Assembly: GCA_963744715.1 (NCBI GenBank)
Contig: CAVUUR010000006.1
Coordinates: 96,001 to 160,000 of the forward strand
Origin: an uncultured bacterium
Lineage (GTDB): Bacteria; Babelota; Babeliae; Babelales; JACPOV01
DNA: 64,000 nucleotides
Direction of reading: 5' to 3'
Below the pieces are notes generated by a model that saw nothing but the letters and a program-made list of their open reading frames with translations, was not told where the DNA came from and made no database searches. Position 1 is the first letter of the stretch; every line of letters begins with the position of its first letter. Position numbers and translations under genes: made by a program. This document shows positions 47,171 through 58,912 of the stretch, in pieces.

Positions 47171-48751
47171 TTAATGGGACCGTGCCTTTTTTGTTTTGTT
47201 GTAATGCATTGCACTAAGAACGAATACATCATTGTCTCGATCTTCAGCTTGCTCAATACTTGTTTTATCGTTAAAATTTTTGATATCAGTTCTTGCTCCA
47301 TGGGCAAGCAGCAAGTCGATAATTTTAGGTATTGCATATTGTTCTGCATAATGCAAAGGGGTGTTCAAATCAAGATCTTGAATATTTACTCGGGCGTTAT
47401 GTTGTAACAAAAAATCCGTCGTTTCAACTAAATTTTTTTCTACCGCATAATAGAGCAATGTTTTTCTTACTTCATCACGCACATTAATAAAGTCAATAAA
47501 GGTTTTGGATGCCTTTGCATAAAAATTTACTAATTCCTCTTTTATTTTTTGATCTTCATCGATGCGTTCAGAACGTGAAAAGCCAAGATCCTCAAGAGTA
47601 GTAAACAACGTAATAAATTCATTCCATAGCTCATCGCTAGCAAGATTGATAATCGGCCGGCCGCGTGATTTAAATCGTCTGAACGTTTTGGATGGATCTT
47701 CTGCTAAATATGTCCATGTTCTTGCTATCAGTATTGGGTACAATGCTATTCCTCGGCCTTGTATATTAAAAACAACCGAATCATTTGCAGTACCAAGACT
47801 AACTAGTTCTTTTCCTGCAAATTGATTCACTAAAATTTTTTTTACGTTAGCGCAATGAGTGCCTCCTGCATAAACAATGGTGTGATTAGAGGGGGATGCG
47901 AATAATTTAATGAGAAACTCCATGTCAGCAACTTTTTCCATAAATTCCCACAACAGTGTATCCAATTCAGTTTGTCTACATTCCGTTCTGATAATGTCTC
48001 TAAATTCACGCAAGGTCATAGACCGAGACCGATCACGATCTATTATTTCATCTACATACCTATAGAATGGCATTATTGTTCCCTGCATACACATATTCCA
48101 TAATCTACGTAATGCCCCATAATACTGTTTAAACCCATTTTTTTTAACGTTCTCAAGGTCCTGTTCCGCCTTAGAGGTTTTAGGATCGGCTAATTGAGCT
48201 ATAATAGCAAGGTAACGTTGCGCTGAAATATCCAATATTTTATCAGGAAGCACTACTCCCCTCATTAACATTAAGTGTGTCAAATCGATATTAGGAGCAC
48301 CATTGCGATAAGTATCTCCATTATTATATACTACCGATGCATGGTTACTTGGGGCAAATTCTTTTTTTAATCTAAGGCTATATACAAGCCAATTAAATGA
48401 AACCGGATCACTCAGAAGATTAGAATCTGACCGGCCAACCGGTTCCTCCCATAATAGTTCTATAGGATTTTTTTGTGCAGCTAATTTTCGTAACGTGATT
48501 AATAACGTTCTTTCTGATGTAGTAAAAGCACTTTGCTCATCAACGGCAAGATATCGCTTCCGTTTTCTTGATGGTTTTTTAACGAATTCATGTACGGGAA
48601 CATGCCAATCCGATATAAGATCTACTGTTTTGATGATAGTATTACCATCGGCAATAACAATTCGTTCATAGTTAAAAGGAAGCCCATTAATTATAGTATT
48701 GATGGGAGCTACTATTAAAAGTACGATGAACCATTTATTGAACATGATCAA
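47171..48751 (-). CDS. secreted protein with C-terminal ankyrin repeats
   Basis: DLISDWH, LLWEE, YAGGTH; KTLLYYAVE, NTPLHYA. Confidence 0.88.
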   Translation of the reverse strand: MIMFNKWFIVLLIVAPINTIINGLPFNYERIVIADGNTIIKTVDLISDWHVPVHEFVKKPSRKRKRYLAVDEQSAFTTSERTLLITLRKLAAQKNPIELLWEEPVGRSDSNLLSDPVSFNWLVYSLRLKKEFAPSNHASVVYNNGDTYRNGAPNIDLTHLMLMRGVVLPDKILDISAQRYLAIIAQLADPKTSKAEQDLENVKKNGFKQYYGALRRLWNMCMQGTIMPFYRYVDEIIDRDRSRSMTLREFRDIIRTECRQTELDTLLWEFMEKVADMEFLIKLFASPSNHTIVYAGGTHCANVKKILVNQFAGKELVSLGTANDSVVFNIQGRGIALYPILIARTWTYLAEDPSKTFRRFKSRGRPIINLASDELWNEFITLFTTLEDLGFSRSERIDEDQKIKEELVNFYAKASKTFIDFINVRDEVRKTLLYYAVEKNLVETTDFLLQHNARVNIQDLDLNTPLHYAEQYAIPKIIDLLLAHGARTDIKNFNDKTSIEQAEDRDNDVFVLSAMHYNKTKKARSH

Positions 48752-48816
48752 ATCCTTTTTTTACTCTTTTTTGATAGGAAAAATAATTTTTTTTCTAATC
48801 AAGCCCCAAAAATTTA

Positions 48817-50377
48817 TTATCTTTTTTTTGTTTTTTTATAACGCTTCACACTAAGAAGAAATACATCGTTACCCTTTTCTTCAGCCTGCTCAATACTCGT
48901 TTCATCTTCCAAATTCTCTATGTCAGTTCTTGCTCCATGAGCAAGAAGCAACTCGATAATTTTAGGTATTGAGTGTTGTTCGGCATAATGCAAGGGTGTA
49001 TTCAAATCAAGATCTTGAATATTTACTCGGGCGTTATGTTGTAACAAAAACTCCGTCGTTTCAACTAAATTTTTTTCTACGGCATAGTAAAGTAAGGTTT
49101 TCCTGAATTCATCACGCACATTAATAAAGTCAATAAAAGTCTTGGACCCTTTTGCATAAAAATTCACTAATTGTTTTTTTATTTTTTGATCTTCAGCTAA
49201 GCGCTCGTACAACGCCGATGGTAGGGCGACGAGAGCATCACGCAATGCAATAAATTCATTCCATAGCTCATCGCTAGCAAGATTAATGATCGGTCGGCCA
49301 CGTGATTTAAAACGTCTGAATGTTTTATATGGATCTTCCGCTAAATATCCCCACGTTCTTGCTATCAAGGCGGGAGAAAATTCTATTCCTTGTCCTTTTA
49401 CATCAAAGCAAACAGAATCGGTTGTAGTACCAAGACTAATAATCGCTTGACCTCCAAATTGATCCACTAAAAAATTTTTCACAGCGGTACAATGGGTACC
49501 TCCTGCACAAATAATAGTATGATTGTACGGTGATGCAAATAATTTAACGAGCAACTCCAGATCAGTAACTTTTTCCATAAATTTCCATAGCAATGCTTCC
49601 AATTCGGCTTGTCTATATTCCATCCTGATAATGGTTCTAAATTCACGCAGGGTCATAGCTGGATCATGATTTATTATATCATTTACATACCTATACAATG
49701 GCATTATTTTCATGCATACAGGTATCCCATAATGCATGCAATGCCCCATAATACTGTTTAAACTCATATTTTTTAACATTCTCAAAATCTTGTTCAGCTT
49801 TAGAGATCTTGGGATTGAGTAATTCAACGATGATGGCAAGGTAATTCGTAGCCGGAATATTTAATATCCGATCAGAAAGAGCTTTGCCAGGAAATGGCAC
49901 CAAGTGCGGCAAATAAATATCCGATCCATAATGACGATACGTATCCCCATTATTATATACTATTGATGTGAGCTTGGTTACATCAAATTCATTTTTTAAC
50001 TTAAGGCCATACGCAAGCCAATTAAATGAAACCAGATCGCTCGGAACATCAGAAGCTTCCCAGCCAACTGGCTCTTCCCATAATAGTTCTATAGGATTTT
50101 TTTGCTCAGCAAGTTTTCTTAACGTAATTAATAACGTTCTTTCTGATGTAGTAAAAGCACTTTGCTCATCAACGGCAAGATATCGCTTCCGTTTTCTTGA
50201 TGCTTTTCTAACGAATTCATGTATAGGCTCATGAAAATCCGAAATAAGATCTATAATTTTAACAATAGTATTGCCTTCGATAATGATAATTCGGCGATAT
50301 TGATAAGGTAATGCATTAATTATAGTATTGATGGGAGCCACTATTAAAAGTACGATGAGCCATTTGTTAATATTCAT
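48817..50377 (-). pseudogene. tandem paralog of 47171-48751, frameshifted
   Basis: ORF 49691-50377 matches the paralog N-half and ORF 48817-49839 the C-half; the frame changes at the A run 49707-49710. Confidence 0.88.
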
Positions 50378-50511: not shown

Positions 50512-51807
50512 TTAACGCAATCGTTTAGTTGATATGTATATAATGGATACCATGCCAAGAATATAACAATAATAGACATGCGGCATAATATGTAATGGCG
50601 AAACCCCCGCAATGGTACTTGCTAGCAAAACTTGCGCACCGTAAGGAATAATCCCTTGAAAAACACATGAAAAAATATCAAGCCATGCAGCACTGTAGTG
50701 GGGAGGAATATGATAACGTTTTGCAATATCACGCGCAATTTCTCCACTAAAAATAATTGCTACGGTATTATTTGCAAGCAGTATATCAAATCCTGAAACA
50801 ATCGCTGCTATTATTAATTGTGCCGTCTTTTTACTGCCACCGGTTTTAGAAATCCATCTACTCAAACTCTGGGTGAGCTCTTGAGTACTTTTGCCGGCAA
50901 GGCCAGAAAGACCACCAACCATTAATGAAAGAACCATTATTTCATGCATGCTTGCAAAACCTTTAACGATATCATTACTAAAGGCAAATAAGGTGTATCC
51001 GTGATGCACATATCCTATAAACCATGCAAATACCAGCGACAACAATAAGGTAATAAAAACATTCACCCCTAGTAAGGCTAATGCCATAAGAACTATATAC
51101 GGTGTAACTAAAAGCAATGCGTAATCTTTAAACCCAAGTGCCACATTGGCATCTTGTACAAAAAACAAAACGGCAATGGTAATAATTGAGGCAATGCCGG
51201 CAACAAGCGCGTTGATGCGCAATTTTGCTTTCATATCTGCTTCTTGTGACATAACTGCAGCAATGGTTGTATCTGAAATAATTGATAAATTATCGCCAAA
51301 CATAGCACCACCAACAACGGTAGCTATGCCGTTAATTACCGAAAATGCACCCTGACTTGCAAGGCCTGCTGCAATAGGAGCAACCGTGGCAATGGTGCCC
51401 ATGGAGGTGCCTATTGAGATTGAAATAAATGCTGCCGTTAAAAAAATGCCAATTAATAAAAACTGTGGTGAAATACAGGATAACGCTACGTTTACGGTAG
51501 AGCTAACGCTGCCAATTGAAGTGGTAACGGAACTAAATGCGCCCGCCAATAAAAAAATGATACACATGGTAATAATATCGGGATGCCTAACCCCTTCCAG
51601 AAATCTATGTAATTTTTGGTCTTTGGTGCCGCCATCGAGGAGCCATCCTAATGCAATGGCCGGAATAATAGCAACCGTTGGAGAAAGTTGATAAAAGGCG
51701 TTATTAACTCCTAACAGAGAAAAATAAATACCGGTACCTACATAAATAACAACGAATAATAAAATCGGTAAAAAACTGATAAAAATCATAGAAATAATCT
51801 CATGCAA
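50512..51807 (-). CDS. Na+/H+ antiporter NhaC family transporter (possibly MetT-like amino acid permease)
   Basis: IFLLAGAF, GTSMGT, GGAMFGDNLS.ISDTTIAA, NNTVAI, LDIFSC..QG.IPYGAQ. Confidence 0.92.
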   Translation of the reverse strand: MHEIISMIFISFLPILLFVVIYVGTGIYFSLLGVNNAFYQLSPTVAIIPAIALGWLLDGGTKDQKLHRFLEGVRHPDIITMCIIFLLAGAFSSVTTSIGSVSSTVNVALSCISPQFLLIGIFLTAAFISISIGTSMGTIATVAPIAAGLASQGAFSVINGIATVVGGAMFGDNLSIISDTTIAAVMSQEADMKAKLRINALVAGIASIITIAVLFFVQDANVALGFKDYALLLVTPYIVLMALALLGVNVFITLLLSLVFAWFIGYVHHGYTLFAFSNDIVKGFASMHEIMVLSLMVGGLSGLAGKSTQELTQSLSRWISKTGGSKKTAQLIIAAIVSGFDILLANNTVAIIFSGEIARDIAKRYHIPPHYSAAWLDIFSCVFQGIIPYGAQVLLASTIAGVSPLHIMPHVYYCYILGMVSIIYISTKRLR

Positions 51808-51886
51808 AAAAAGTGAAAACAGATAATTAAAAAGAATACTACTAAATATTTAGGGAATAATGAAAGAACCGAGAATGGTGTGCCTG

Positions 51887-51976
51887 TTAGGCCAAAACAT
51901 TCTCGCATCGCATGAGATGTAATGTTTGCAAAGTTTTTTGAACGCGTTGCGCAGAGTTTTTTGTAGTATTAGCCAT
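51887..51976 (-). promoter_or_regulatory. putative leader peptide (29 aa) with attenuator hairpin
   Basis: MANTTKNSAQRVQKTLQTLHLMRCENVLA*; the stop codon lies in hairpin CGAGAATG..GCCT-AAC-AGGC..CATTCTCG. Confidence 0.55.
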
Positions 51977-52054
51977 AGAATAATACCCTGAAATAGGTTA
52001 AAATATAGTTATAGTATATAAGTATTATTAAGAAAAAACAATGTAGCAGTACTA

Positions 52055-52735
52055 ATGATTAATATCGTATTGGAACATGCCATGAGAAAAGTTTTTTGGG
52101 ATAATCCTTATCAACATATCTTAACCACTACGGTTGCATCAGTTGATGGCAATAAACTGTTATTTGAAGAAACCATAGCCTACTCTTTTGCAGGCGGCCA
52201 AGAAAGTGATAAAGCCTACATTAATGGCCTGCCGATCCTTGACTCAGTACGTGAAGGTAATCTTATTTATTACACGTTGCCGGAAGGGCATAATCTTTCA
52301 ATAGGTGATGAAGTTATCATGACCATTGATTGGCCACGCAGATATAGATTGATGAGGTTGCATTTTGCTGCTGAATTAATTCTTGAAATTGTAACCAAAA
52401 AATTTGGATTTGAAAAAATTGGTGCGCACATTGCTGAAACTAAATCGAGAATAGATTTTATAGCAAACACCAACATTACACCGCTTTTTGAAACTATAGT
52501 AGCTGAATATAATGAAATCATCACAAGCAACAAGCCGATTCAAACCGGTTATTCTGATATTGAAAATCAAAGGCGTTTTTGGAAAATTGACGGCTTTGCG
52601 CAAGTACCCTGCGGCGGCACTCATGTTAGATCAACCGCCGAAGTTGGATTTGTAACGCTTAAAAGAAAACATCCGGGCAAATCGATTGAAAGAATTGAAA
52701 TCAGACTCGTTGATGATACGGTTCCCAATGTTTAA
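52055..52735 (+). CDS. alanyl-tRNA editing protein AlaX
   Basis: GGQESD, IDW.RR...MRLHFAAE, PCGGTHV. Confidence 0.92.
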   Translation: MINIVLEHAMRKVFWDNPYQHILTTTVASVDGNKLLFEETIAYSFAGGQESDKAYINGLPILDSVREGNLIYYTLPEGHNLSIGDEVIMTIDWPRRYRLMRLHFAAELILEIVTKKFGFEKIGAHIAETKSRIDFIANTNITPLFETIVAEYNEIITSNKPIQTGYSDIENQRRFWKIDGFAQVPCGGTHVRSTAEVGFVTLKRKHPGKSIERIEIRLVDDTVPNV

Positions 52736-52792
52736 TTGGTGGTCACGATTCAAACAATAATAAAAACCTAACAATATTCGGGGATATTTTTA

Positions 52793-53389
52793 ATGAATAA
52801 ATTTTTTATGATTTCTTTTACTTCTTTTTTTATGATCATAACAGGTGCTCGTGCAATGCAACAAGACCAAAAAAAAGCATTAGTATCTGCTCTTGCACAT
52901 ACCATACGTAAGGCCGATTACGCTACATTTAACGGACTTTATGCAAATAAAAATAATAGTCTTTCCGGTCCTAAAAAAATACAACTTTCTATCCTTGCCT
53001 GTAGCAAATTGTTAGCCGCAGATCATGAACAATCTTTGAATAATGGAGCAATATATAAAAGTAAAATGATTAAAGGCATCTTTGGCTTAGGATTTGGTTT
53101 AGCTACCGGCTATTTTGTATATAAAGGAATGTCACCAGATTTTTTTCCCAGAAATAACGCAGCCCTAGAAAATAGTTTTTCATCAGTAATACAATCAAGC
53201 TATGCTACCGCAAAAATATGTTTGCAGGCTGCAGCCTGGGCGGGGCCATCAGCTCTTGTTGCCGACGGATTACTTAATGTATATCGTGGGTATAATTACC
53301 AAAATCACTTAATAAATAATTTTTACCAATTGCAATCGATTAACAAAGACATTGGTAGATTAACTCAACCACGGGTTGGCAATCGATAA
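52793..53389 (+). CDS. secreted/membrane hypothetical protein (paralog of 58436-58912)
   Basis: MNK.FMI, DY..F.GLY, GAI...KM.KG, GY.YQ..L. Confidence 0.75.
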   Translation: MNKFFMISFTSFFMIITGARAMQQDQKKALVSALAHTIRKADYATFNGLYANKNNSLSGPKKIQLSILACSKLLAADHEQSLNNGAIYKSKMIKGIFGLGFGLATGYFVYKGMSPDFFPRNNAALENSFSSVIQSSYATAKICLQAAAWAGPSALVADGLLNVYRGYNYQNHLINNFYQLQSINKDIGRLTQPRVGNR

Positions 53390-53420
53390 CGTTAAAATAA
53401 TGAGTAAAGCGACAATTGCT

Positions 53421-54155
53421 TTACTCATTATTTTTTAATCTCTTTTCCATGAAACGTTCACCGTTACTATTTTTTACTATTTCATAAAAATAATGTTGCG
53501 CATAGGTATGAATTAATTCTTTATCATGGGTGATACAAATAATAGTAATCTGATGCAACTGCGTTAATTTTGTTAAAAAATTCATCACCATCTGCGCATT
53601 TTTTTCATCAAGCGCCGCGGTCGGCTCATCCAACAATAACAACGTAATTGGTTTTTGCAATGCCATAACAATTGCCAAAATCTGCCGTTGCCCACCAGAT
53701 AATGCTGCAACCTGGTTATTCGGCGTTATGCCAACTTCTTGCAGCATATCAGCATATTTGAACGTAGTAGACAAAGCAGTTAGCGATGGATAATAAGGCA
53801 ACTGCGCTACTGATAGATTATTTGCAACAGAAAAATCAGTCGCGAGCATCGTATTATAATTTTGATGCACTAATCGACTGGTCGTTTTCAATAATAATTG
53901 AGTATTTTTATCTGCAAGATTATAGATAACTTCATTAAGTTTTATTGATCCTTGAATATACTCTCCATCATATAATTCACCTTGCAAAATACGCAAAAAG
54001 GTTGATTTGCCTATACCATTTCTTCCCATAATAAACATGATGGCATCGGTAGTAAAATCACAGCTCAAATCCTTGAAAAATAATGTATCACCTTCGAAGG
54101 CAAACGAAACGTTCACTGAAATAGTACTCATATTATTGTTATAAACCCTGTTCAT
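53421..54155 (-). CDS. ABC transporter ATP-binding protein
   Basis: GRNGIGKST, LSGGQRQ, LLLDEPTAALD, ITHD. Confidence 0.95.
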   Translation of the reverse strand: MNRVYNNNMSTISVNVSFAFEGDTLFFKDLSCDFTTDAIMFIMGRNGIGKSTFLRILQGELYDGEYIQGSIKLNEVIYNLADKNTQLLLKTTSRLVHQNYNTMLATDFSVANNLSVAQLPYYPSLTALSTTFKYADMLQEVGITPNNQVAALSGGQRQILAIVMALQKPITLLLLDEPTAALDEKNAQMVMNFLTKLTQLHQITIICITHDKELIHTYAQHYFYEIVKNSNGERFMEKRLKNNE

Positions 54156-55014
54156 ATTTTTTTCCTTTGGTAAATATTTGCGTAAGAACTAGGAGCACAA
54201 ATACTATGCATGCTTGTACCATAATAAAATAACGAGAATCAAAATGTATTTGCAAAAGCACCTGTTGCAGAATAAAGTAACTAACAATACCGAAAATCGG
54301 AATCATTATGCCATATTTAACCTTGGTAAAAGCTTTTCCTAAAATAATCATCGTAATACAGAATAAGTTAATGCCAAAGCCCATTGAGATATCGGCAAAT
54401 CCATTCACGCCGGCATTTAAAAATCCCGAAATACCTGCAAGTGAACTGCTCACAACAATGCAAGCAAATTGAACAAAATAAGAAGAGATATTATAGTGTG
54501 TAAAAAAATCGGGGTTATTGCCGTATATACTACAACTCAGACCAAGGGCAGACCTGCTAAAGCAGAAAAACATACTGGTAATTATGAGAGCAACGATTAT
54601 CAGCGTTGCTAATTGAGGATATCCCTGCACGCTCGGAATCAGCGATAAAATGCCATCCACCGTAGATAAGGAAACATGGGTACCATGTATAATCATTTGA
54701 TTAATGCCGTGAAATAGTCCCAAACTAATAATACTTGCCAATAAAAATGAAATATGCGCATAGTATCTTACTATGCAGGTAACTAATCCAACAAAAGCAC
54801 CCCCTAATAGCGCCGCACTACTCGAAAAAACAAGTCCAAAAAATGGACCTAGGTTGAGTAGTAACACCAAACTTCCCATCAATCCACCAAAAACATACGA
54901 AGATTCTATCGCCAAAAATGGCACTTTTAACACCGAAAATGCACAATAGGAACCCAATATAAGTGGCATATAGATACACACTTGTTCTAAAAAAGTACAC
55001 AAAATATTCAGCAT
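54139..55014 (-). CDS. ABC transporter permease (TrpY/BPD_transp_2-like)
   Basis: Multi-TM protein; LLASII, GFADISMGFG. Confidence 0.88.
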   Translation of the reverse strand: MLNILCTFLEQVCIYMPLILGSYCAFSVLKVPFLAIESSYVFGGLMGSLVLLLNLGPFFGLVFSSSAALLGGAFVGLVTCIVRYYAHISFLLASIISLGLFHGINQMIIHGTHVSLSTVDGILSLIPSVQGYPQLATLIIVALIITSMFFCFSRSALGLSCSIYGNNPDFFTHYNISSYFVQFACIVVSSSLAGISGFLNAGVNGFADISMGFGINLFCITMIILGKAFTKVKYGIMIPIFGIVSYFILQQVLLQIHFDSRYFIMVQACIVFVLLVLTQIFTKGKKYEQGL

Positions 55015-56060
55015 TACTGTTCTCCTGCAAATAAGGTTGATTTCAATAGAAAGAGTACTGTTTGATCAAGTATAAAACGTTGAGCACTCATTTCGCTAAT
55101 ATTAATTTTAACTCTAAAATCATGTATGAAATTGCTTGGAATTTCTGATGGTTGTTTATGATCTCGTAAAATATATATAGCTTTTTGTGCAGCTGCAACA
55201 CCTATTTCATATTCAAACACACCAAAGCCTAAAACAGCACCTTTATCAACTGAGTTCAGATCTGAAACATATAATGGTGTATGTTTTCTTCGTGCTAACG
55301 CCACTAATGCTTCAATACCGGAAACAACAAGATTGTCTTTGAGAACCATAATGACCGCATCGTTATTATGCGCTGATAATAATGCATCTACTCTGGTAAA
55401 CAATTCGTGGGTCGCGTAAATTTTAGTGGTAATTAATGCAATGCCAAATTTTTCGCACACGATTCTAAGTTGTTCAGTTTGCTTTTCCAAGCCTGGAGAA
55501 GGATAATAGGGAACTATCAATGTTTTAGTTGGATGCAACCTCAAGAGTACGTTAAGTTGTTGGTCAAAATCATAATGATCACTCACTACAACAACATTAT
55601 TGCCAGAATGTTCAAGACTTTCAACTAATCCAATTTCAACCGGATTTTCAGATACGGCACAACACACTACCGGAATAGAACTTTTTCGTTGAGAAAAAAC
55701 CTCCTTACAAATAAGTGATACCGGCGTTGTTATAGCGCACACCAAATCATAGTTTTTTTGTATGGTTTGATCTGCTTGTGAGCGCATCAAAATACGATCA
55801 CCGTTACCATTATAGATATCATAAGAAATAGCTACTTGTTTTGACAGTTCATCAATAAATCCCTGCTGAATTTCCTCGAGTGCCGGATGTGATACCGGAA
55901 GCAAAATAGCAACACGATAGGTTGTAGCAGAAATTGCGTCACAGGGAGCAATATCCTCATTATTAGATTTGCGCACTACATTTTTCTGATTTAAAATAAA
56001 AAATCCAAGAAGCACTCCCAGAGTGCATAATAAGGTAATTATAATGCCTATTCGTTTCAT
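55014..56060 (-). CDS. ABC transporter substrate-binding protein (ABC_sub_bind, TrpX/tyrosine-type)
   Basis: SHPALE.I..GF.D.L, TP, PV...AV..P...GLV, DN.VVS, SV.KGA. Confidence 0.85.
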   Translation of the reverse strand: MKRIGIIITLLCTLGVLLGFFILNQKNVVRKSNNEDIAPCDAISATTYRVAILLPVSHPALEEIQQGFIDELSKQVAISYDIYNGNGDRILMRSQADQTIQKNYDLVCAITTPVSLICKEVFSQRKSSIPVVCCAVSENPVEIGLVESLEHSGNNVVVVSDHYDFDQQLNVLLRLHPTKTLIVPYYPSPGLEKQTEQLRIVCEKFGIALITTKIYATHELFTRVDALLSAHNNDAVIMVLKDNLVVSGIEALVALARRKHTPLYVSDLNSVDKGAVLGFGVFEYEIGVAAAQKAIYILRDHKQPSEIPSNFIHDFRVKINISEMSAQRFILDQTVLFLLKSTLFAGEQ

Positions 56061-56836
56061 ATGTGTTCCTTTAAAACTAACGTATTGTCGGTTATTTTTT
56101 CAGCATGAAAACGCTCCTTGCCCGTATCAGATTTTTTAAATGCAATACGTTTTTCATAGAGGTATTCGTACTGCAAATAATCTATTAATCGGTCATCTTC
56201 GCGAGAAGCTCTGTTATTGATGATGGTAATTGTTTCGAGCGATGAGCCCGAAATATTTTTTAATACCGGAAACTGTTTAATTAAATAGCGTATGCGTTCA
56301 TCAATGCCAGAAATTTCTTGTGGCACACGCGCAAGTTGATAATCGGGAGGAATGATAAGAGTTACGTCACCCGTAAATTCAGTATCAACAATCGATTGCT
56401 CAATGATGGCAATAATCTCTTGTATGATGCGTTTGAAAAAAATTCTGCATCCATCAACAAAATGTTCACCGAGTAATTTCCGCATACCACTATAATAGAT
56501 GGGCAAATACGCGATCACCAGATGATCAACATCATGCTCTTTGCATAGTGAGAATGTTTTTTTAAAAGAATCCCGCACATAATCAATATCTAAAAAATCA
56601 GCAAGTTTAATAGTGTGTAAAAGTTGCCTACTATTATTATTCTTTTTTATGTACTCAGTTGGATGAGGAGTACAACCAAGCAAAGCAATATGTTTGCTCT
56701 CGGAAGGAATAACAAAATAATCGCCCACGTATGCATGCACCTGTTGACGATGCATGCTAGTTGTGTACACCATTATTGCTAAAAATCCACCGATCAGTAT
56801 CGTACTCAAGGCCACAATCGGCATTACTTTATTCAC
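56057..56836 (-). CDS. hypothetical membrane-anchored protein
   Basis: Probable GTG start at 56836 (GGAG RBS, coupled to the upstream stop); N-terminal TM segment; stop overlaps the SBP start. Confidence 0.65.
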   Translation of the reverse strand: MNKVMPIVALSTILIGGFLAIMVYTTSMHRQQVHAYVGDYFVIPSESKHIALLGCTPHPTEYIKKNNNSRQLLHTIKLADFLDIDYVRDSFKKTFSLCKEHDVDHLVIAYLPIYYSGMRKLLGEHFVDGCRIFFKRIIQEIIAIIEQSIVDTEFTGDVTLIIPPDYQLARVPQEISGIDERIRYLIKQFPVLKNISGSSLETITIINNRASREDDRLIDYLQYEYLYEKRIAFKKSDTGKERFHAEKITDNTLVLKEHI

Positions 56837-57858
56837 AGGCCTTCTCCTTATATTGTGCATGAACATGATCAACAAGGTGCTGGTTGAATAGCGGAGAAGT
56901 TTGATAGGTATAGGTACTATCAGGCTGCACAATGTACGGATTGAATTTTTTAGTCGGATACCCTTTGCTATTGGTAATGGGTAAACTCGCCCCCGTTGCC
57001 TGAATCCCTTTTTCCTGCAAGGCAAGAATCATCGGCTTTAAATCATCAGCATCTTGATCCATAAGTATATAATTATGGCTAGAATCTAACTGCTGCGTTA
57101 ATTCTTTATGCAGTACATCAATATTAGCACTCAGTTTGCTCGGTGGATTATCCTGCTCAATCATATTCGTAAAATATTCTAATTTTGGAATAACAATACG
57201 AATATCTAAAGGATAATTTTTAGCCTGTTCTTCATATAATCGCTTGTAAAACAATGCCGATTCTTTAAGAAATGTATGAAAAACCGATGGTTGCAGGGTA
57301 TCTTTTAGATGGCGCATATCAGCACAATAACTTGGCATAAACATATGTACAAGATATCTTGATTGGTTATCTACAGTATTTTCTGTTTTTTGATCCGCTG
57401 TTTTGAGCAGAATGCGTACATTTTCTTGAAGTGTTGTATAATCAAAACCGGCATCAAAAAAAAGTTTAAATAGTGCCGGATTGGAAGAATCACCAATATA
57501 TTCGTTAAATTTTTGTAAGCCAGGGACAACTTTCAAGCGATGCAATATGAGTTTTTACACGCTTTTCTACACCCTTAAGTACTTTATTAATATTATTGGC
57601 CGTAATAGGCTTATTGCTATGATCTGCAAGTTTTTGACAATGTTCTTGCAAACAATGCATATACTGCTCAAAAGCAGAAAAACGTGGCGTTGCACCAAAA
57701 ACAGAAATGCTCGATGGTCTATTGCCAATGGATGTGCCAATTGATACATCTTCATTATGATCAATAATAGTTAGTTTTGCTTCTAATCCACTATCCATCG
57801 CGCTGAGATTGCCACTAAAAAAAGGTATTAAACAAATTAAAAACAATATCTTATTCAT
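56829..57858 (-). pseudogene. exported hypothetical protein, frameshifted
   Basis: ORFs 57505-57858 and 56829-57545 join as ...KRVKLILHRLKVV if one A is removed from the run at 57552-57556. Confidence 0.7.
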
Positions 57859-58006
57859 GATTATCCTTGCTAAAATTGTCTGAATTACTGATTTTTTGCA
57901 TCAGTATTACTAGGTGAGTGCTAAAACAACACAAACTCAGATCAATTACATAAATACATTATTCAAAAGTATTAAAAAACAGCTATGTAAAATAAAAAAA
58001 ATGGTG

Positions 58007-58141
58007 TTAGGCGCAAGGCCAGCAAGAATTTTCCCACAAAGCTGGGATCAGAGAGGCGCAACGGGTTGTTGCCATAGATAGAGAAAAAGTAAAGACTGGC
58101 TTAGGAGCATGCCGATCTTTCATATAATACCTATTTTCCAT
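58007..58141 (-). promoter_or_regulatory. putative leader peptide (44 aa) of the ABC operon
   Basis: GAGGAG RBS, ATG 58141, MENRYYMKDRHAPKPVFTFSLSMATTRCASLIPALWENSCWPCA*, then CACCA and T8. Confidence 0.6.
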
Positions 58142-58435
58142 AGGGTTCTCCTCAAGAAAACTAAAAACTACTAATTCTATGAAACCATACATTTTCTTAT
58201 TTGTCAACTGTAATTAAAAAAGGAGCGTAATACAAACAATGTTACTAACTTTGAACCTACCCGTAATAACCGATAAAATCTTATCGCAAAATACATTTTT
58301 TCTACTTATTTTCATAATCACGCAATTATTGTAAAAAAAAGCGCAAAGATAATAATAGAAATGGTAATATGCATCATTAATGATAGTATTTTCATGATAA
58401 AAACAATAATAACTAATAATTTTCAAGGATGTTTT

Positions 58436-58912
58436 ATGAATAAATTGTTTATGATTTTTATTGTCCTTGCTTTCGCGATGACAACAAGTATTAATGCCAC
58501 GCAAGAAGAAAAATCACTTGCTCCTTTTATGATGCAAGCGATCAATAAGCGCGACTATTCTAACTTTCACGGACTTTATACGGGTGCACAAAATTTTAAT
58601 ACTTACAAAAAAAAACTTTCTGATTTTTCTCAAGCTAAATTAGATATAGCACAACAAAAAATGAATATAAATCAAGGAGCTATCAATCCAGAAAAAATGC
58701 TTAAAGGGTTCTGGTTTGTAGGAATGGGTTTAGCTATTAGTCATCTTGTATTATCTAAAGAAACAGATATTGCAGTTGCGTGCGGAGCTGCTACCCTTCT
58801 TACGTTCGGAGTACATGATTTGGTTGATGGCTACTATTACCAAGAGTATTTAAAGTATCAGTATGAACAAGCAAAACAATTGCATGATCAAGCATTTGCT
58901 ACACAGAATTAA
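58436..58912 (+). CDS. secreted/membrane hypothetical protein (paralog of 52793-53389)
   Basis: Start MNKLFMI at 58436, placed by paralog alignment and AAGGA RBS. Confidence 0.75.
   Translation: MNKLFMIFIVLAFAMTTSINATQEEKSLAPFMMQAINKRDYSNFHGLYTGAQNFNTYKKKLSDFSQAKLDIAQQKMNINQGAINPEKMLKGFWFVGMGLAISHLVLSKETDIAVACGAATLLTFGVHDLVDGYYYQEYLKYQYEQAKQLHDQAFATQN

Follow-up and report, generated by a model that had tools for sequence, protein, structure and literature searches.

In Pseudomonas, the short leaders trpL1 and trpL2 precede trpE and trpGDC (PMC13434334); the accessible part of that report gives no termination mechanism for them, and premature 3' ends have been described next to the trpGDC upstream open reading frame (uORF) (PMC8297930). 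Rho-dependent attenuators that rely on a uORF include tnaC, speFL, cruR, mgtL, and corL (PMC12360218), while trpXYZ of Streptococcus suis is controlled by a T-box and induced by tryptophan limitation (PMC9382623). Frameshifting within leaders is represented by ermCL, where it is induced by ketolides, and by pheL, where it occurs incidentally at CCC-UGA; the 2016 review that covers them states that no productive example of frameshifting at a hungry (starved) codon was known at that time (PMC5009743). Here, we analyze the leader of an ATP-binding cassette (ABC) transporter operon, together with the leader of a nearby nhaC gene, in a 64,000-nucleotide (nt) stretch of DNA from an uncultured member of the Babeliales (contig CAVUUR010000006.1; G000:C6:96001-160000). 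This stretch is referred to below as the window, and its genome, assembled into 12 contigs (1.26 Mb, ~35% GC), as G000.

The Babeliales are intracellular parasites and amino acid auxotrophs. We propose, with moderate confidence and from sequence comparisons, that the ABC leader senses tryptophan and acts through Rho-dependent attenuation, that a +1 frameshift adds a second stage in related leaders and recurs inside the first gene of the operon in the window, and that the nhaC leader is an analogue for methionine.

Tryptophan leaders of the ABC operon

We used the ABC substrate-binding protein to search 261 genomes of the phylum, which yielded 59 matches in 56 genomes; one match at the start of a contig was left out, and 58 loci were analyzed. 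Under a blind rule, 45 of these loci have a uORF ending in Trp at the head of the operon, compared with 84 of 380 head regions of G000, and curation by eye recognized a Trp leader in 52. The six loci without one comprise two contig ends, one locus that an insertion element seems to interrupt, one copy from an expanded group of paralogues, and two unexplained cases. The leaders are 11 to 74 codons long, with endings such as SWRWWR, FWPWA, and AWPCA. In all 52, the last Trp lies 2 to 7 codons from the stop, a position at which the ribosome is decoding it rather than holding it deep in the tunnel; the residue that follows Trp is Arg (37/89), Pro (14/89), or Trp (12/89) in most cases. The leader in the window has a single stage, and its last 15 bases are identical to those of the leader in genome G106 (L089). 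Taken together, the ABC leader very probably senses tryptophan.

The Trp codon opens the 5' arm of a small hairpin in 43 of the 52 leaders. This local hairpin has a mean energy of -7.5 kcal/mol, against -5.8 after synonymous recoding and -4.1 in shuffled sequences, and it is more stable than the synonymous mean in 39 leaders. The flanking RNA is rich in C and poor in G: C and G number 649 and 323 upstream and 535 and 332 downstream, versus 6658 and 7024 in background heads. Across the 52 leaders, G makes up 4 to 7% of the first 40 nt past the stop, and 45 tails pass a threshold of at most five G and at least five C. A rule for intrinsic terminators, in contrast, was passed by only two of the 52 leaders and by neither leader in the window, whereas the same rule was positive at 18 of 30 loci of paralogous binding proteins. 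Rho was matched in 41 of 41 genomes, with scores above the family cut-off in 39 of the 40 relatives, the copy in the present assembly being frameshifted. Since terminators are found at only 2 of 52 leaders and Rho is present throughout, we infer that attenuation depends on Rho, an effector that we regard as reasonably probable.

The leaders are not confined to the transporter. A degenerate Trp-leader pattern gave 24 matches over the 261 genomes, seven at known ABC leaders and one new, at a contig end (L285); the other 16 lie inside or antisense to genes or are unclear (17 of the 24 were inspected). Leader-like matches with a visible downstream gene all stand before the ABC operon or before unannotated accessory genes, and none precedes tryptophan biosynthesis genes. 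Moreover, six Trp leaders (L383, L388, L397, L399, L402, and L404) head accessory-gene operons outside the loci of the ABC search, so that the regulon would be wider than the transporter.

Some of the operons behind Trp leaders (L104, L069, and L096, in G014, G213, and G194) carry genes resembling N-methyltryptophan oxidase and Dit1/PvcA as well as an M20 aminoacylase gene, and a CPT-like phosphotransferase gene is present at L061; this content hints at salvage of modified tryptophan by these relatives. Separately, three genomes of one genus (G026, G043, and G058) show a large expansion of the ABC binding-protein family, with 7 to 26 matches, and the few copies inspected have no Trp leader.

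A candidate +1 frameshift stage

A covariance-model search first drew our attention to leaders arranged in tandem. We therefore took a census of 63 loci, made up of the 52 above, 3 found by the model, and 8 found through the accessory gene, with the upstream frame substituted by hand at three of them. The codon before the first terminal Trp is CCC in 13 loci, NTT in 14, and another codon in 36. From that Trp, the +1 frame again ends in Trp plus a stop in 12 of the 13 CCC-UGG loci and in 8 of the 14 NUU-UGG loci (two of them doubtful), but in none of the 36 others; the -1 frame does so in none of the 63. Among the CCC class, which spans seven families, 10 of the 12 second frames are 32 to 36 codons long, and the second-frame body, with 203 C and 79 G, is C-rich. 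Every leader of the census has UGG in the A site. Of 20 two-stage leaders, 12 have Shine-Dalgarno (SD)-like bases 3 to 4 nt upstream of the slippery codon, compared with 0 of 43 others. Read most simply, the two-stage leaders likely involve a +1 slip under a shortage of charged tRNA-Trp, and frameshifting in the relatives is highly probable.

A similar site occurs within the first gene of the operon in the window. Its zero frame stops four codons past the Trp codon of a CCC-TGG, and joining it to the +1 frame gives a 342-residue protein with 37% identity to an intact homologue across 345 columns. CCC-TGG is found in frame 12 times in the genome, and only once, at this site, within 14 codons of a stop. 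The preceding codon is TGT, and the TGT-CCC-TGG context is shared by 5 of the 13 CCC leaders. In a quick tree of 49 binding proteins, picked for known leader class, the protein of the window groups with those of two CCC-UGG two-stage loci (Shimodaira-Hasegawa-like approximate likelihood ratio test, SH-aLRT, 100). Judged from this context, the CCC-TGG is probably a real frameshift site. A homologue search with the 117-residue first fragment returned only a self-match. The structure model of the first accessory protein (P0002/L395; window 56829-57858) is confident, with a predicted local distance difference test score (pLDDT) of 87. Its structure matches reach Z scores of 7 to 9 only and are HUP/Rossmann-like, loosely resembling class I synthetase and cyclodipeptide synthase domains; Foldseek gave no match at E<=0.001, and Atlas matches were all below 0.9. 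For the homologue of this gene in genome G247, modeling weakly suggests a HUP/Rossmann-like fold.

The nhaC leader and methionine

The NhaC-family protein is likely a MetT-like importer of methionine; MetT is described as a methionine transporter of the NhaC family in the portion of the report available (PMC3228920). A family search found MetQ in 0 of 261 genomes. The S-adenosylmethionine (SAM) riboswitch search at 20 distant nhaC loci gave a single match, not immediately before the gene, and is uninformative on cargo.

Three of five close metagenomic homologues with upstream space have leaders ending in RMPV, RMPVRG, or RMFAKHS. A Met leader with a G-poor tail stands at 7 of 15 nhaC heads, compared with 58 of 478 background heads, in a test made after the leaders had been seen. 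Some observations weigh against a methionine leader at the window locus. It is the weakest copy: only one internal Met lies in frame, and the ATG of the hairpin stem (51900-51898) belongs to another reading frame than the leader. Fourteen of the 24 Babeliales nhaC loci examined are operon internal, and a blind rule (Met in the last eight uORF codons and a G-poor tail) was passed by only 4 of the 10 others, namely, the window, L044, L032 (ending PMASMPFFMMA), and L050 (ending AMIMMPRFGA); L051 shares the Met-rich ending of L050 but lacks an in-frame start. The uORF might be degenerate or a chance product, its hairpin serving another role, a possibility also favored by the failure of the Trp-leader model to detect it and by its near-chance likeness to the Trp leader (below). 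Against this possibility, it belongs to the 17 of 103 uORFs of the genome with a ribosome-binding site (RBS) that also have a G-poor, C-rich tail, a set that includes the nhaC, Trp, and Lys/Arg leaders, and its closest head-of-operon homologues (58 to 73% identity) do have Met leaders. We therefore lean toward methionine sensing by the nhaC leader of the window and consider a degenerate or chance uORF the less probable account, if a serious one.

Two further features adjoin this leader. Three ATGs, each in a different frame, fall within a 16-base span, and a third frame (window 51908-51786, minus strand; MRECFG...CMRLFL) starts inside the leader and remains open to a four-base overlap with the nhaC start. 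This frame was set aside, as it was not found in relatives with Met leaders. An AlaX-like tRNA editing gene (window 52055-52735, plus strand; NF040865, below cut-off) diverges from the nhaC leader and shares a short promoter region with it.

A shared architecture rather than a shared motif

The original prediction held that the ABC and nhaC leaders share one RNA attenuator motif, with Glu-Asn codons, a GARAAT-ATTYTY fold, and CACC flanks. Both short ORFs are present exactly as quoted there. The fold is predicted for nhaC, where GAGAAUG and CAUUCUC pair with probabilities of 0.985 to 0.995, but not for the ABC leader, in which GAAAAU pairs with the U tract at <=0.01 and only the GGC/GCC stem forms (~0.51). 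Among the 52 orthologous Trp leaders, Glu-Asn and GARAAT each occur once and CACC twice, the single Glu-Asn leader being that of the window itself. Local alignment of the two leader ends scores 24, a value reached by 2375 of 20,000 random pairs of small-ORF ends and, with one partner fixed, by 16 of 615 and 4 of 615. A pattern built post hoc from the two copies matches those two alone in the genome. A covariance model of the Trp leaders gave 21 matches in the window at E<=10, the nhaC leader not among them, and Rfam had no match for either leader at gathering score or E<=5. Given this near-chance likeness, these counts, the silence of the Trp-leader model at nhaC, and the lack of an Rfam match, the shared motif is incidental. 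As general accounts, we rejected the Glu-Asn, GARAAT/ATTYTY, and CACC motif, the Rfam families, a classical terminator in the Trp and Met leaders, and a single consensus RNA structure. The absence of a recognizable SAM riboswitch or T-box, also asserted earlier, is borne out by the Rfam result and extends to 12 related loci, at which the Rfam T-box and SAM models gave no match at E<=5.

What the leaders have in common is an architecture: a control codon, a small hairpin that spans or precedes the stop, flanks rich in C and poor in G, and no terminator. Further leaders of the same genome bear on this point. A search with paralogous binding proteins gave 46 matches in 37 of 151 genomes, with leaders that are mostly Tyr-rich. 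In G000, Tyr-rich leaders at G000:C9:135518 and 136763 (plus strand; L300 and L331), each with a classical terminator hairpin, precede tandem paralogous ABC binding proteins. The 16 Tyr-leader proteins in the quick tree form one side of a branch, a split that is partly circular since the two sets came from separate searches. Outside the window, at G000:C6:52899-52759 (minus strand; L299 and L301), a leader with a strong RBS and ending KRYLKRFPKRKQ precedes a 540-residue NhaC-family gene at C6:52414. The leader of the closest homologue of this gene ends LKRCHKRLPKRT; no such ending was found in the other seven close homologues with upstream space, and a similar one occurs in G073 (L302). This leader is likely to sense Lys/Arg by the same design, without a terminator, and the set as a whole suggests that control codons follow the transporter.

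The idea of ribosome-coupled leaders whose codons match transporter cargo thus holds well for Trp and moderately for Met, although not as one RNA motif. Similarly, a lineage-specific family survives as an architecture, which the Tyr and Lys/Arg leaders extend, rather than as a common sequence. Cysteine, the other residue put forward for the nhaC leader, finds no support.

Proposed mechanism and alternatives

The ORFs with their conservation, composition, and frames, the presence of Rho, and the lack of terminators are observed, whereas stalling, the Rho step, the direction of regulation, the frameshift itself, and the cargo are inferred. When tryptophan is plentiful, the ribosome would finish the leader and leave, and Rho would load on the C-rich, G-poor RNA and end transcription. 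When it is scarce, a ribosome stalled on the Trp codon may shield this RNA, as argued from geometry, and the operon, which likely imports tryptophan, would be transcribed. Because the control codons sit inside the hairpin, the hairpin is probably a pause or timing signal for the polymerase and not a terminator. In relatives whose first frame ends in CCC-UGG or NUU-UGG, a +1 slip at the starved Trp codon would take ribosomes to a second Trp site ~85 nt farther along; two starved codons would be needed, as ribosomes translate the C-rich stretch only once they have slipped. In the window, the CCC-UGG lies inside the first gene, so that tryptophan starvation may be required both for the complete protein and for the coupled transcription of the ABC genes; a ribosome that does not shift would leave ~670 nt without translation before the remaining genes. 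The nhaC leader may work in the same way for methionine. In its widest form, the proposal is that the Babeliales sense tryptophan by hungry-codon +1 frameshifting: a cassette like that of prfB, but with UGG replacing UGA, would lead into a second Trp-stalling frame that shields RNA from Rho; in the present genome, the cassette would sit inside the first gene, with its protein made only under tryptophan starvation; and both would belong to a phylum-wide set of terminator-less Trp, Met, and Lys/Arg leaders that replace riboswitches and T-boxes. We favor this wider proposal by a modest degree.

Several observations weigh against these readings. Covariation in the leader hairpin is weak, its score being reached by 9 of 500 shuffles for the full alignment and 126 of 500 for a 19-sequence subset, in part because the register varies. 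RNAalifold found no consensus structure for the Trp leaders. C-richness is mild or absent at the window locus itself (33 C and 27 G in the leader body; 19 C and 20 G in the whole spacer). The binding protein scores 141 bits on the TrpX model NF041285, against a curated cut-off of 390, and is thus a family-level relative only; a Tyr-leader paralogue outscores it on the same model. The Fisher values of 1.4e-10 and 0.0014 are overstated, as related genomes are not independent.

The interrupted first gene of the window may also be an artifact of assembly, with one inserted base at the CCC-TGG. The present assembly contains many indel errors: rho (G000:C3:17408-18665; L042 and L043) has several one-base shifts within a 500-nt patch, most likely assembly errors; there are three apparent frameshift overlaps within the window; and the ORF lists show apparent breaks in genes that we take from their sequences to be typA, lepA, and ftsH. 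Eleven of 12 other genomes have the first gene intact, and 10 of 19 aligned rows have Pro-Gly at the junction, where one inserted base would yield CCC-TGG. The site has no SD-like element. On the other hand, an assembly error would have fallen on the only near-stop CCC-TGG of the genome, and in a Trp operon. We consider an artifact unlikely at this site, though a real contender. A broader version, which we rate lower still, adds that the tandem frames of the relatives are leaders initiated separately or reinitiated. Some ATG or TTG is indeed present in 8 of 18 second frames; however, the other 10 have no start codon and none of the 8 has an RBS, the second frame is in every case +1 and goes with the slippery codon, and the spacing of the SD-like bases is that of prfB. 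That no shifting takes place in the relatives is therefore quite improbable, and a frameshift at the starved Trp codon remains our preferred explanation for them.

Alternatively, Trp stalling could be real while its output is not Rho but the hairpin and a U-rich run, which together would signal mRNA decay or serve as an intrinsic terminator assisted by a factor. A U-rich run follows the hairpin by ~3 to 10 nt in many leaders, and stalling at Trp codons in ytgCR of Chlamydia leads to Rho-independent polarity, according to the accessible part of that study (PMC7755916). Apart from the scarcity of terminators noted above, this alternative meets a geometric objection, that with control codons inside the hairpin the polymerase would be at the U run before the ribosome decodes them, and it leaves the ~85-nt C-rich second frame unexplained. 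We therefore judge it unlikely and retain Rho as the effector. Less plausible is control by RBS accessibility. In 7 of 52 leaders, stalling brings a predicted gain in accessibility of more than 0.1; the mean, however, moves only from 0.40 to 0.43, and there is no conserved sequestering helix over spacers of 58 to 355 nt, and we rejected general RBS sequestering on this near-unchanged accessibility. An arrest peptide of the TnaC type, responding to high free tryptophan by inducing a catabolic or modifying operon, would suit the tryptophan-modifying genes of the relatives but is very improbable, as the Trp lies 2 to 7 codons from the stop, neither leader length nor body is conserved, no residues keep the fixed distances of TnaC (only the final Trp context being common), and a shift at a Trp codon implies a response to scarcity.

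Features of the window and neighboring genes

The coordinates of the two loci are given in Table 1. Upstream of the Trp leader, a scan found no -10 element to partner the -35 hexamer.

Table 1. Features of the ABC and nhaC loci, in window coordinates
Feature	Position	Strand	Remarks
NhaC-family transporter	50512..51789	-	PF03553
Stable hairpin over nhaC leader stop	51871..51904	-	Formation probability ~0.99
nhaC leader ORF	51887..51976	-	29 codons, ending LMRCENVLA-stop; one in-frame internal Met (51913-51911), one Cys (51907-51905)
Weak Shine-Dalgarno of nhaC leader	51985..51990	-	
ABC ATPase	53421..54155	-	PF00005
ABC permease	54139..55014	-	PF02653
ABC substrate-binding protein	55014..56060	-	PF04392; NF041285 TrpX, E 4e-41
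Second accessory gene	56057..56836	-	No family assigned; also in the G247 operon
+1-frame continuation of first gene	56829..57521	-	
First operon gene, zero-frame part	57505..57858	-	117 codons; hydrophobic N-terminus; ending C-P-W-L-T-K-I-stop
CCC-TGG	57520..57525	-	Candidate +1 site at Trp codon or one-base assembly insertion; junction with intact homologues exactly there
G-poor, U/C-rich tail after leader stop	57967..58006	-	G 5%; candidate Rho-utilization tract
Small GGC/GCC hairpin	58007..58021	-	Opened by Trp41 codon, closes just before stop; pair probability ~0.51
Trp leader ORF	58007..58141	-	44 codons, ending WENSCWPCA-stop; Trp36 58036-58034, Trp41 58021-58019
Shine-Dalgarno GAGGAG of Trp leader	58148..58153	-	
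TTGACA -35 hexamer	58202..58207	-	Perfect match, from sequence; upstream of Trp leader

Two small proteins that resemble each other and have no assigned family are encoded on either side of the ABC operon, on the opposite strand (window 52793-53389 and 58361-58912, plus strand). Farther along, window 47171-50377 (minus strand) holds tandem paralogous genes with what are presumably ankyrin-like C-termini; the second copy is broken by an apparent frameshift near 49690-49839.

Comparison with known systems

Our literature searches, in which subscription papers were thinly covered, found nothing on leaders of the Babeliales (Dependentiae) or on an attenuator with a frameshift at a Trp codon. If correct, the proposed mechanism would be a natural, selected use of starvation-induced frameshifting in bacteria, in the form of a compact cassette that could be tested in Escherichia coli. 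The dozens of natural terminator-less variants of the Trp leader may help to work out attenuators of the Pseudomonas type, the Met and Lys/Arg leaders on transporters add to the repertoire, and, in a phylum with hardly any cultured members, leader codons could be used to assign the substrates of transporters and accessory enzymes that lack annotation.

The leaders of the window and its relatives resemble trpL of Pseudomonas in having Trp codons within the last few codons and a Trp-Arg or Trp-Pro context, as far as the accessible part of that report describes (PMC13434334). They differ in that they precede an importer rather than biosynthesis genes, in the longer and C/U-rich leader body, and in the +1 two-stage form. 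With E. coli trpL, they share control codons that match the amino acid, in the absence of a terminator or antiterminator (the latter having had no separate search); the Tyr leaders of the same genome, unlike the Trp leaders, are of the classical terminator type. With the uORF-dependent Rho attenuators, the common ground is a uORF, no intrinsic terminator, and a ribosome that shields a C-rich Rho utilization (rut) site, which in cruR lies inside the uORF (PMC12360218). As described in the available parts of these sources, tnaC, speFL, and cruR sense their ligands via the nascent peptide, whereas the present leaders seem to respond to charged tRNA at a codon. The Cys leaders predicted in Actinobacteria likewise place control codons near the stop and have polypyrimidine tracts (PMC1262725). 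Neither for these leaders nor for the Rho attenuators do the same portions of the sources describe a frameshift stage. The transporter family is that of trpXYZ of S. suis, yet no T-box was found with Rfam at the present locus or at the 12 related loci.

The prfB gene of the present genome (G000:C6:45876-46901; L410) is a single open frame without the usual frameshift. The closest parallel to the second stage is nevertheless the +1 frameshift known from prfB, with its slippery codon followed by U, slow A site, and internal SD 3 nt upstream, as set out in the sections available (PMC5009743). One leader (L110), which reads GGG TAT CTT TGG C, is a release factor 2-like site with UGG for UGA. The two differ in the A-site codon, UGG (Trp) rather than a UGA stop, in CCC as the commonest P-site codon, and in the destination of the new frame, which in the leaders is a second control site and not a protein. 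Finally, ermCL and pheL share with these leaders a frameshift within a regulatory uORF; here, the predicted shift would be specific to an amino acid and is conserved across seven families.

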